Source of the DNA: an uncultured Thermoplasmata archaeon
Lineage (GTDB): Archaea > Thermoplasmatota > Penumbrarchaeia > JAEHCK01 > CBDVCJ01
Reading direction: 5' to 3'
Assembly (NCBI GenBank): GCA_965372445.1
Contig: CBDVCJ010000001.1
Coordinates: forward strand, 1 to 47,651
DNA: 47,651 nucleotides
Position numbers and translations under genes: made by a program. This document shows, in pieces, positions 1,856-4,800 of the stretch (within the stretch, counting starts at the first letter, position 1; every line of letters starts with the position of its first letter). The notes below the pieces were generated by a model. The model was not told the DNA's origin. It searched no databases and was given only the letters and a program-made list of their open reading frames with translations.

Positions 1856-4800
1856 TTAGTCCCAGCTCACCTCGTCATCATCCTTTAACTTGGATTCAGG
1901 ATATAATAGATTAGTGTCGCAGTTTGGACAATTGATAATACGATCGGCACAGCTTTGGTGATAGGTTTTGCCGCAGGTACATTTGATAACTGGTAGGCTG
2001 GTTTTGATCACGCCAAGACACACGTTGCAGGTTGCAGATTCGTCGAGTTGCTGTAAAACCGGCCTTTTGGGCACTCCTTTCAACCGGGTTTTACGTTTTG
2101 GTGCAATTATTGCAGGCTTTTTTGCTTTGGGCGGTTTGAAAGGTAACTTAACGGATTTTGATGGCGGCGAATCTTCGGACTCAATGCGGCTTTCGATATT
2201 CACATCCTCATCGGCTATATCTTCAGGTTCGGATTCATCCTCGGCGGTTTCATCACCTTCTGCCAAATCTTTTTCTGAATCCTGAGAATGCTTGCGCTTG
2301 CGTAGAATTAAAAACACGATCAAAATTATTATTATGATGATAACGATGGATATAACAATGAACACCCCAGTCTCCGTCGAGCTATCCTCAACGCCCGCTC
2401 GCAAAGCAAGTGTAATATTTGAAATTGTTAAGTTTTCTGTACGTATGGTATATTGACCATCAGAGACAGTAAAATAATAGGTATGATTGCCGATGGATAA
2501 TTGCGTGGTGTATTCATATTTTCCGCTGGCAGGGTCGCCAATAACAAATTCCATATCATATGAGATATTGTCGATAACTACCACGATCTTTTGCGGCCTA
2601 TCGCCGTCTGCATCAATATATTGAACCGAGAATGTAAATTCAGTTTCCGTATCGCCCGAGACAGGAGCTATGCCCGGAAGTATCAGTTCCGGTTTTGTGT
2701 TCGAAGGTGCAGGGTATTTTGTTATGTTGATCGTGAAATTAAAAAAGCTTATACCTCCCTCGCCATCGTCCAAGGAAATATTGACCCATACCCATCCGCC
2801 ATCACCCTCGCTTGGAGTGCCATTCAATATGCCATAACTCGAATTTATTGCCAGCCAGGTTGCGTTTGTAACGAGCGTCCATGTGAGGTTCTCTGCGATA
2901 GTGCGGTCGTCGGTGCCTTTGAACTGGAACGAATAATGCTGACCTATAGCGGTGCGATCGGTTAGAGCGGAAGTGTTGATAATTGGGGGTTCGTTGAACG
3001 GTGGATATACTTTAAGTGTGAAGTTATGAAAGTCCGAGCCGTTCCCAATATCATACACCGACACATTTACCCAGAACTCGCCCGAATGGCTCTCGTCGGG
3101 CGTGCCGTTCAACCAACCTGTGGTAGTATTCATTGTTAGCCAACCCTCCGCCGAGGTTGCCAGGTACCAAGTTAGATGTTGAGGTGACGGATCGATATCG
3201 GCAGCTTCATAATGCACAGCATAAAATTCAAGAGAGTTTGTAACAGTAAGATCTTCTGTGATTATTGTGGGCGGGTCATTAGTGTTAATTACACTAATTG
3301 TAAAGTTCGTATGATCAAGAGCCACGCTATCCTCGACACTGATATTAACCCAAAACTTGCCCACATCCTCATTTGTCGGCGTGCCGTTCAAAATTGCATT
3401 TGTGGTGTTGAACCGCAGCCAACCCGCACTGGTGTCAAACGACCAGGTCAGGTTTGTCAGGCCCGGATCAACGTCAATAACCTCATATTGTACATTATAA
3501 ATTTCGTCCTCATAGGCGGTGGTGTTATCAATTGTGACGAGCTCAGGGGCGTCATTTATATTGATCACAGTTAGTGTAAAGTTCGTGTAATTAAACCCGC
3601 CAAGCTCGTCGGTTATCGAGATGTTCAGCCAATAGCGCCCGACATCATCATTTATTGGTATTCCATTCAATGCTCCTATTGAGGGGTTGAAGCTCAGCCA
3701 CGATGTTGCGTTCGTTTGGAATTGCCAAGCATGAGCTTGCCAATGGTCAATATCTGTAAAATTATATTGAACGTTATAAAGTTCGTCTTCGAAGGTTGCG
3801 TTGCTATTTTGGGTGGTAATATTTGGGCGGGTATTCATCACCTGCGGGCCTTCAAATAGGGCGGTGCCGATCTCATAAATGCCATCCGTTGCAAAGAATC
3901 TGTAATCATGGTCTGTACTGATATTCAATGTCGTGCTGTAAAAATAGAGCTTGCCGTCGTAATGGTAATTATCACTTGCATTTTGTTCCTGCATTGTGAA
4001 GTTCGTACCATCGAGGTTGAGTTTTACGTATGACGGCGGCTCGTTATCTGCGTCCGAGTAGTTTATAACGTATGTAAATACGGTATTTGTGAAACCACTG
4101 GTTGGGGTTACATTGCTTGGTAGAAATTCGGGTGCAACATAGGTAGTTCTGTAAAATATATCGCGATCTGATCCGGAATTAGCTGAGAGGTTCTTATCGT
4201 CCCAAACCACATGGACTTTATTGTGCTCCACAACGATTGCTGGATCTCGGGAAGGGTTTTTGTTGACATCATTTCCAAAAATTGGCTCTGATAGGATCTT
4301 GATCTTCGACCATTTAACACCGTCAAACCATCGATAAAATATATCCTCGTCCGGGAACATTGCATCGGGGCTTGCACCGTAAGTGTTGTTCTTATCTTCC
4401 CACACAATGTATACCTTACCATCCTCCACGTCGATCTTTGAATGGTATGATTGTTCAATATTATTATTTACACTGGCCACGGGCTCTGAAATAACCTCGA
4501 TACCAGACCAGCCGCTATCACTAAGGTGGCGATAGCAGATCTCGATCTCCATTGCCTCTGCAAAATAGATATTGCTGTGGTCTTCCCACACAAAATAAAC
4601 ACCACTATTGTCAACTGCAATGTCAGGCCATTGCGAAGGGCCGTCGTTAAGATCATTCCCAGCAACGGGTTCCGAAACTACTGCGGTCTGCGACCATGAG
4701 CTGCCATCATGATATCTGTAAAAAATATCAGTATCAGTGCTTGCGCCATTAGTCTCGTTCGCATCCGACCAGACCACATGGACCCTATTATCATCAACAT

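Follow-up and report, generated by a model that had tools for sequence, protein, structure and literature searches.

The window analysed here is the whole of a 47,651-nucleotide stretch of DNA from an uncultured Thermoplasmata archaeon (assembly GCA_965372445.1, contig CBDVCJ010000001.1, forward strand), whose genome we denote G000. A gene on its minus strand (1856..5611) encodes a predicted type-I surface protein of 1251 amino acids (aa), P0001, whose putative cytoplasmic tail carries a cysteine-rich finger; it is the longest open reading frame (ORF) over that finger. Translation placed the finger at aa 1195–1231, where the residues read CNVC-LGVIKTSLPVIK-CTC-GKTY-H-QS-C-ADRIIN-CPNC and map exactly to 1919..2029 (−), just as a first-pass annotation of this DNA had described them. 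The eight ligands follow the order C4HC3 with the spacing C-x2-C-x12-C-x1-C-x4-H-x2-C-x6-C-x2-C, and sequence, conservation, profile searches and a structural model were used to assign the segment as a RING-like binuclear finger. The family to which it belongs is tied to a set of E1, ubiquitin-like protein (Ubl), E2 and JAB genes by co-occurrence, gene order and gene fusion.

All features of P0001 lie on the minus strand. The translation begins with a hydrophobic signal or anchor segment (aa 6–25; 5537..5596), followed by an ectodomain (aa 26–1081; 2369..5536) in which repeat positions and Pfam matches delineate seven ~61-aa 'DIFYR' repeats and then Ig-like domains of the He_PIG (E = 4e-19) and Big_9 (E = 5e-7) families. 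The 'DIFYR' repeat region had no match in a search of PDB sequences. A lone transmembrane (TM) helix, GVFIVISIVIIIIIILIVFLIL (aa 1082–1103; 2303..2368), is followed immediately by the stop-transfer signal RKRK (aa 1104–1107; 2291..2302). All 40 N-x-S/T sequons of P0001 are found before the TM helix and none in the tail; this distribution, together with RKRK and the positive-inside rule, suggests that the 148-residue tail lies on the cytoplasmic side. The tail comprises an acidic linker (aa 1108–1148; 2168..2290), which recurs among members of the finger family; a Lys/Pro-rich basic linker (aa 1149–1184; 2060..2167); the segment VLQQLDESAT (aa 1185–1194; 2030..2059), which is kept in P0002–P0004 and forms a β-strand in the structural model; the finger; and a C-terminal stretch with an acidic run that ends in S-W-D (...DDDEVSWD; aa 1232–1251; 1859..1918). 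The first Cys of the finger is 91 aa past the end of the TM helix and 113 aa from its start, so the distance of about 110 aa given earlier holds when counted from the start of the helix and not from its end.

Seven of the ten Cys residues of P0001 fall in the 37-residue finger. When the 4.04-Mb genome was scanned in six frames with a regular expression, the ligand pattern appeared in just five ORFs, with identical spacing in each, indicating that the pattern is real and beyond chance. The eight ligands are invariant across 9 paralogues and orthologues, and also across 76 diverse family segments whose mean column identity is 26%. Two full-length orthologues from independent assemblies, P0002 and P0003, keep the complete architecture of P0001. 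Identity among orthologues reaches 97–100% in the finger, compared with 64–66% in the ectodomain, and thus the finger is the most constrained part of the protein. Moreover, a 1962-aa protein with an unrelated ectodomain has a tail 73% identical to that of P0001 over the aligned, finger-bearing part, which argues that the tail is a module moving between surface proteins.

Besides P0001, four ORFs of G000 encode the finger, in five copies altogether: a soluble coiled-coil protein of 439 aa (C5), a small TM protein with two fingers (C54), a tiny ORF (C226), and a partial ORF with an ectodomain–TM–finger–JAB arrangement (C445). A search of the genome contigs with the whole of P0001 found no relative, and a word-indexed homologue search with the tail returned three relatives only; the family became visible through an exhaustive profile search against 1.84 billion representative proteins, which yielded 891 clusters at E ≤ 1e-3, of which 70 reached E ≤ 1e-10. 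The exact spacing x2, x12, x1, x4, x2, x6, x2 is present in 148 of the 185 domain copies from the top 150 proteins, with the family consensus CxIClGxIKxGlxxvkCxCGkxYHxsCAxRvgxCPxC. Two architectures recur. One has a large ectodomain, a TM helix, a linker and then a single finger or several; the other is a small protein that bears fingers in tandem (up to 5–9 copies in soluble ones). Within the phylum, the family was found in 67 of 151 sampled genomes. The first-pass annotation had considered such a module unusual for an archaeon outside the Asgard lineages; given this frequency, and given that RING-like domains are on record for a euryarchaeote of marine group II (PMC4327156), as is a deep Thermoplasmatota clade of E2s (bioRxiv 10.1101/2023.07.25.550441), that statement was too strong.

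Pfam searches with the 80-aa tail alone gave sub-threshold matches throughout, including zf-RING_2 (22.6 bits, E = 1.3e-4), C1_1 and PHD_NSD, and NCBIfam returned nothing meaningful for either the protein or its tail. Prok-RING_1 (PF14446) scored 15.6 bits on the tail (E = 0.016), 10.8 bits on full-length P0001 (E = 0.51) and 13.3–25.4 bits on the paralogues in G000, all below its cut-off of 29.1 bits. Across the 76 family segments, the same profile matches 65 at E ≤ 0.01 (best 2.3e-8) and tops all other Pfam families, including zf-RING_2 (50 segments), C1_1 (28), PHD (15), DZR (5) and Zn_ribbon_6 (4). Judged by these profiles, the family as a whole belongs to Prok-RING_1, while the score of the P0001 copy itself stays short of membership. 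Assignment to RING-H2 (zf-RING_2, PF13639) fails on two counts, as the ligand order is C4HC3 instead of C3H2C3 and the score of 22.6 bits is below the cut-off of 27.3 bits. When the family profile was compared with PDB sequences, the RING-H2 domains of Arkadia and RNF165/Ark2C came first (E ~2e-7 to 1e-6); PHD and C1 domains ranked next.

The finger had earlier been likened to RING-CH and PHD domains. The C4HC3 order bears this out, but the closest families are Prok-RING_1 and RING-H2. RING-CH domains combine C4HC3 and a C-x-C pair with x7 before the His and a loop 2 of 11–25 residues. The P0001 finger fits this MARCH-type consensus in ligand order and in C-x-C; its His spacing is x4 and its loop 2 is x6, and no RINGv match appeared at E ≤ 10. 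For the PHD finger (PF00628), the score was 13.6 bits (E = 0.072) against a cut-off of 24, loop 2 is x6 and there is no Trp; ligands 3 and 4 are spaced C-x1-C (x2 in some paralogues), compared with C-x2-4-C in PHD, which also has x4-5 ahead of the His and a long loop 2 with a conserved aromatic preceding C7. Because the spacing and the Pfam scores do not agree with either class, we do not file the finger as RING-CH or PHD.

A zinc-free model of the last 82 aa of P0001 was computed with AlphaFold2 from the 76-sequence alignment. Its mean predicted local distance difference test score (pLDDT) is 83.9, rising to 93–95 over the finger. In the model, a short strand lies ahead of the first Cys, a hairpin (model positions 38–41/47–49) holds ligands 3 and 4 in its turn, and a helix begins at His-x2-Cys. 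A knuckle, a β-hairpin and a helix in this arrangement make up a treble-clef layout, in which ligand pairs 1 and 3 would share one zinc and pairs 2 and 4 the other. Foldseek comparison of the model with the PDB returned the RING domains of RNF12, RNF165, Arkadia, RNF38, ZNRF1, RNF13 and TRAF6 at the top, mostly from E2~Ub-bound structures, with root-mean-square deviations of 2.0–2.6 Å over 53–59 columns and a probability of 1.0. C1 domains are interleaved with the RINGs in the ranking, and LIM domains, which are sequentially ligated, appear from rank 39 onward. The predicted structure thus displays the cross-brace fold of a RING, and the structure check that had been set beforehand came out in favour of a cross-brace finger.

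These data also bear on another arrangement, which the first-pass annotation had put on an equal footing: two independent, sequential zinc ribbons or knuckles unrelated to RING, with C1–C4 holding one zinc and H5–C8 the other. Weak double-zinc-ribbon matches in Pfam (DZR in 5 and Zn_ribbon_6 in 4 of the 76 segments) would agree with such an arrangement, as would the plain C-x2-C...C-x2-C ribbons that end the tails of other surface proteins in the window. However, the modelled helix that starts at His-x2-Cys after a hairpin with ligands 3 and 4 in its turn is a cross-brace layout, the top structure matches are all cross-brace RING or C1 domains with LIM at rank 39 or lower, and C-x1-C at ligands 3 and 4 is typical of a RING, not of a ribbon knuckle. 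We therefore regard two sequential ribbons as very improbable, and strongly prefer the cross-brace over them. Taking fold and family assignment together, it is highly probable that aa 1195–1231 constitute a RING-type cross-braced two-zinc treble-clef finger, and that it belongs to a family that extends throughout Thermoplasmatota and has Prok-RING_1 as its nearest Pfam entry.

The genome encodes a complete set of ubiquitin-like conjugation components. The search for such genes that the first-pass annotation had proposed turned up an E2, a Ubl, E1s and a JAB protein. A single UQ_con E2 in G000 scores above the Pfam cut-off (56.7 bits, E = 2.7e-15) and carries an HPN motif and a catalytic GG-x-VC cysteine. 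It is adjoined by a ubiquitin-family pro-Ubl with the C-terminus ...PEGG-YKDMVL. There are two ThiF E1-like genes, one of which is paired with a MoaD/SAMP-like protein; the other, on C119, is orthologous to the E1 that relatives encode in their operon (E = 2.7e-104). The E1 lies at C119:10504-11298, the Ubl at C345:2257-2550 and the E2 at C345:1571-2176. G000 is 89% complete, and the one operon-type JAB found in it is the C445 product (E = 4e-69), itself a protein with a finger. The components are an E1 of 265 aa, a Ubl of ~80 aa, an E2 of 170 aa, a finger of ~60 aa and a JAB domain. In the C345:1571-3133 (−) region of G000, the Ubl–E2 pair is split from the E1 and the JAB, and is located directly downstream of a gene for a macro (ADP-ribose-binding/hydrolase-like) domain and upstream of pdxS.

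A back-translated search identified 203 relatives of the G000 E2. The best 80 of these 203 loci come from metagenome-assembled genomes titled Thermoplasmata, Thermoplasmatota, Methanomassiliicoccales, Methanobacteriota or Euryarchaeota, with a few titled merely 'uncultured archaeon' or 'metagenome'. They reveal a conserved E1–Ubl–E2–JAB cluster, in which JAB is present at 72, Ubl at 69 and E1 at 52 of the 80 loci. Since these E2 relatives and the sampled phylum are of this kind, an Asgard origin of G000 is rejected, and its organism is probably a member of Thermoplasmatota.

Across the 151 phylum genomes, E2 was detected in 53. Finger and E2 occur together in 47 genomes, the finger alone in 20, E2 alone in 6 and neither in 78, giving an odds ratio of 30.6 (Fisher p = 1.6e-16, uncorrected for phylogeny). 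A rough collapse to taxonomic families, short of a proper correction for phylogeny, gave 20, 6, 3 and at least 14 in the same order (p = 2e-4). Gene order provides a second link. Genes for proteins ending in the finger lie beside E2 in six loci that were fetched (G004, G016, G036, G050, G080 and G027), all of which also hold E1, Ubl and/or JAB genes, and, by coordinates, in G068 and G086 as well. The G004 genes run E1, finger protein, Ubl, E2, JAB, and a gene for a 962-aa ectodomain–TM–finger protein lies directly upstream of E1. Where ORFs are complete, the E2-adjacent finger proteins are soluble helical-repeat proteins of ~3100 aa with an Ig-like domain and the finger at the end. Those of G036 (L027:2277-11651), G050 (L028:6697-16098) and G016 (L026:3652-13167) sit inside the E1–Ubl–E2–JAB cluster and have ...LGGA or ...GPGGGG right after the finger, so that the putative ligase itself has a Gly-Gly-type C-terminus. 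The operon JAB of G004 (L025:14149-15066) bears C-terminal hydrophobic segments; it is probably membrane-anchored, which would hint at a membrane-sited system.

Fusion is the third link. The C445 protein (C445:138-1910, −) joins an ectodomain, a TM helix, the finger and a JAB/MPN+ domain with an intact JAMM motif (H-S-H-x7-S-x2-D); its full-length form is P0041, of 1471 aa. Two more finger–JAB fusions, encoded by ORFs of 1918 aa and 1449 aa (C187 and C330), are found in G124, a genome of the same order. The family thus has the genomic association with Ubl, E1, E2 and JAB genes that characterizes Prok-RING_1.

The positions at which RING domains contact E2 were compared, with the equivalence resting on established RING–E2 structures and on Caldiarchaeum mutants (PMC5654768). 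Among the 148 family copies with the exact spacing, I or V occupies C1+2 in 125, V, I or L occupies C6+4 in 118, and Pro occupies C7+1 in 118; the corresponding residues of P0001 are V1197, I1225 and P1229. In the RING E3 of Caldiarchaeum, the small RING finger protein srfp, I30 and W58 are needed (PMC5654768), and these correspond to V1197 and I1225 of P0001.

From the predicted fold and the genomic context, we consider it somewhat probable that the P0001 finger is a membrane-tethered E3-like module. Several observations weigh against this. The best Foldseek E-value is just 2.7e-3, which is modest, and PHD and C1, both non-catalytic binding modules, score close to RING. The linchpin Arg/Lys that would come right after the last Cys is absent, as P0001 has D1232 there and the family has G in 68 copies, D in 27, E in 15, N in 14 and K in 2; the linchpin R69 of srfp is required for activity (PMC5654768). 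About a third of the family copies have R or K at C8+2. The genes adjoining that of P0001, for cysteinyl-tRNA synthetase and phosphoenolpyruvate synthase, are housekeeping genes and uninformative on function, and no Ubl-machinery association was seen at P0001's own locus. A finger gene lies within 10 kb in just 1 of the best 80 E2 loci, so the finger is not a core member of the operon. Furthermore, 20 of the 67 finger-bearing genomes have no detectable E2, 13 of them in one family of the same class, f5, and the three f5 genomes tested also have no JAB. This family keeps exactly one finger, on a surface protein of ~1480 aa (e.g., G119:C1:15194-19624 and G071:C103). Retention of the finger without E2 means that it can persist without the cascade, and f5 lends itself to testing whether the finger has a role independent of E2.

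Such a role is the core of the main alternative, in which the finger is an E2-independent binding module of PHD, C1 or LIM type that recognizes a peptide, another tail or an acidic lipid. It would then cluster or anchor cytoplasmic tails, and the links to Ubl genes would be secondary, for instance because the tails are substrates or docking sites. Along with f5 and the missing linchpin residue, this alternative gains from the PHD (TAF3, Pygopus) and C1 (RAF1, PKC, MgcRacGAP) domains that come as close seconds in the profile and fold searches, and from a core spacing that resembles the C1 consensus. Conserved basic residues (K9, K16, K21 and R30) could make a binding face, and the 5–9 tandem fingers of small soluble proteins would suit a scaffold. 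Set against it are the strong co-occurrence with E2 and the repeated insertion of fingers into E1–Ubl–E2–JAB clusters, the recurrent fusion with an operon-type JAB, the conservation of the three hydrophobic E2-contact positions, and the best fold matches, which are catalytic RING-H2 domains. On balance, we consider a purely binding role possible but rather unlikely.

For the E3-like module that we favour, we propose the following working mechanism. The cytoplasmic finger, ~90 aa behind the TM helix, would dock a UBC-type E2 charged with Ubl, making contact through V1197, I1225 and P1229. It would then promote transfer of Ubl to lysines, which may be those of the protein's Lys-rich juxtamembrane linker or those of nearby proteins. 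Twelve Lys residues lie in aa 1108–1194 of P0001, most of them within the basic linker, and P0004 and the G124 proteins likewise have a Lys-rich stretch ahead of the finger; the lysines of the basic linker are thus candidate Ubl acceptors. Tagging might mark the surface protein for turnover or signalling, and the finger–JAB paralogue could mature the pro-Ubl and strip tags at the membrane, in the same place. That the finger binds zinc and E2 and acts as a ligase, and on which substrates it would act, is inferred.

A broader proposal, which we find doubtful when taken as a whole, is that Thermoplasmata-type archaea, outside Asgard, have distributed RING E3 modules among the cytoplasmic tails of many giant surface glycoproteins, together with, in the order to which G000 belongs, the sole JAB deubiquitinase of the system. 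Each such protein might then act as a receptor-like ligase or deubiquitinase and write or erase a Ubl tag at the membrane depending on what its ectodomain encounters. The system might thereby parallel, independently and in archaea, the receptor ubiquitylation that eukaryotes carry out with ligases of the ZNRF3/RNF43 and PA-TM-RING kind.

The model and the sequence comparisons support describing the P0001 finger as a prokaryotic RING finger, of a known kind, in a surface-protein architecture that deserves experiments. Should the tail prove to be an active ligase module, membrane proteins would be under ubiquitin-type control in a large phylum of euryarchaea, one that counts gut methanogens among its members and is distant from the Asgard and TACK lineages in which eukaryote-like ubiquitylation has been reconstituted. 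All parts of the cascade are small and defined in one genome, so the system is directly testable, and testing it would show whether receptor-like transmembrane RING ligases predate eukaryotes or arose independently of them. Even if it has no catalytic role, the finger represents a widespread tail module of surface proteins in archaea that is so far unstudied.

Two further features of protein tails were observed in this organism. In at least 11 G000 proteins the extreme C-terminus consists of [DE]-W-[DE](x0-2) preceded by a very acidic run, as in ..EVSWD, ..DVDWE, ..EEDWDEE and ..EADWEE. The sites are at 1859-1918 (that of P0001) and 26550-26600 in the window and on contigs C5, C44 (two), C50, C52, C89, C148, C184 and C241 of G000. 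Most of the bearers are large surface proteins of type I whose cytoplasmic tail is short; the ending occurs with or without a finger and is kept by orthologues. It looks like a common docking or sorting peptide, and could serve as a shared docking signal in the broader proposal above. In addition, plain C-x2-C...C-x2-C zinc ribbons, e.g., CSNCGTPIKDGWFICPEC, close the cytoplasmic tails of other large surface or membrane proteins, at 33930-37997 (−) and 12988-13992 (+) in the window and at C119:6024-10310 and C54:7931-11773 elsewhere in G000. Cys-rich modules thus seem to be common on the tails of this organism's surface proteins in general. No tRNA genes were found in the window.

Prok-RING_1 (prokaryotic RING finger family 1) reportedly goes back to Burroughs, Iyer & Aravind (2011, Mol Biosyst 7:2261). 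The present family and Prok-RING_1 share the C4HC3 order, the gene association with E1, E2, Ubl and JAB, and the existence of membrane-linked forms. Unlike Prok-RING_1, the Thermoplasmatota fingers are very rigidly spaced (x12, x1, x4, x2, x6) and follow a consensus of their own. Giant surface proteins with such a tail, and finger–JAB fusions, were not described in the literature searched, which did not extend to the 2011 paper of Burroughs and colleagues. A review gives C4HC3 as the ligand order of prokaryotic RINGs (PMC11354881).

Of the systems that have been studied, the closest in function is the cascade of srfp, an E3 from Candidatus Caldiarchaeum subterraneum that also occurs in Asgard archaea (Hennell James et al. 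2017, PMC5654768), in which an archaeal RING likewise goes with a Ubl, an E1, an E2 of UBC type and a pro-Ubl-trimming protease of JAB/Rpn11 type. Whereas srfp is small, soluble, operon-encoded and of RING-H2 type with the linchpin R69, the members of the present family are C4HC3 without a linchpin Arg, usually lie outside the operon on large membrane or scaffold proteins, and belong to a different phylum.

Among binding modules, PHD shares with the finger a binuclear treble-clef, the C4HC3 order and the spacing x4-H-x2-C; the finger does not have the PHD loop 2 of at least 12 residues or the conserved Trp. C1 domains are likewise binuclear treble-clefs, with a core spacing that is nearly superimposable on that of the finger and a score below the Pfam cut-off; the finger differs in having no N-terminal His ligand and in ending in a full C-x2-C pair.

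In architecture, P0001 resembles the eukaryotic PA-TM-RING (RNF13, RNF167, GRAIL), ZNRF3/RNF43 and MARCH ligases, in all of which one TM helix joins an ectodomain to a RING in the cytosol. The MARCH ligases share with the P0001 finger the C4HC3 order and a C-x-C pair. P0001 differs from these transmembrane RING proteins in that it is not a member of their families at the sequence level, its loop 2 (x6) is much shorter, and its ectodomain is far larger and unrelated. The PA-TM-RING and ZNRF3/RNF43-type ligases are its nearest likeness in overall design, and RNF13 is also among the fold matches of the modelled finger.

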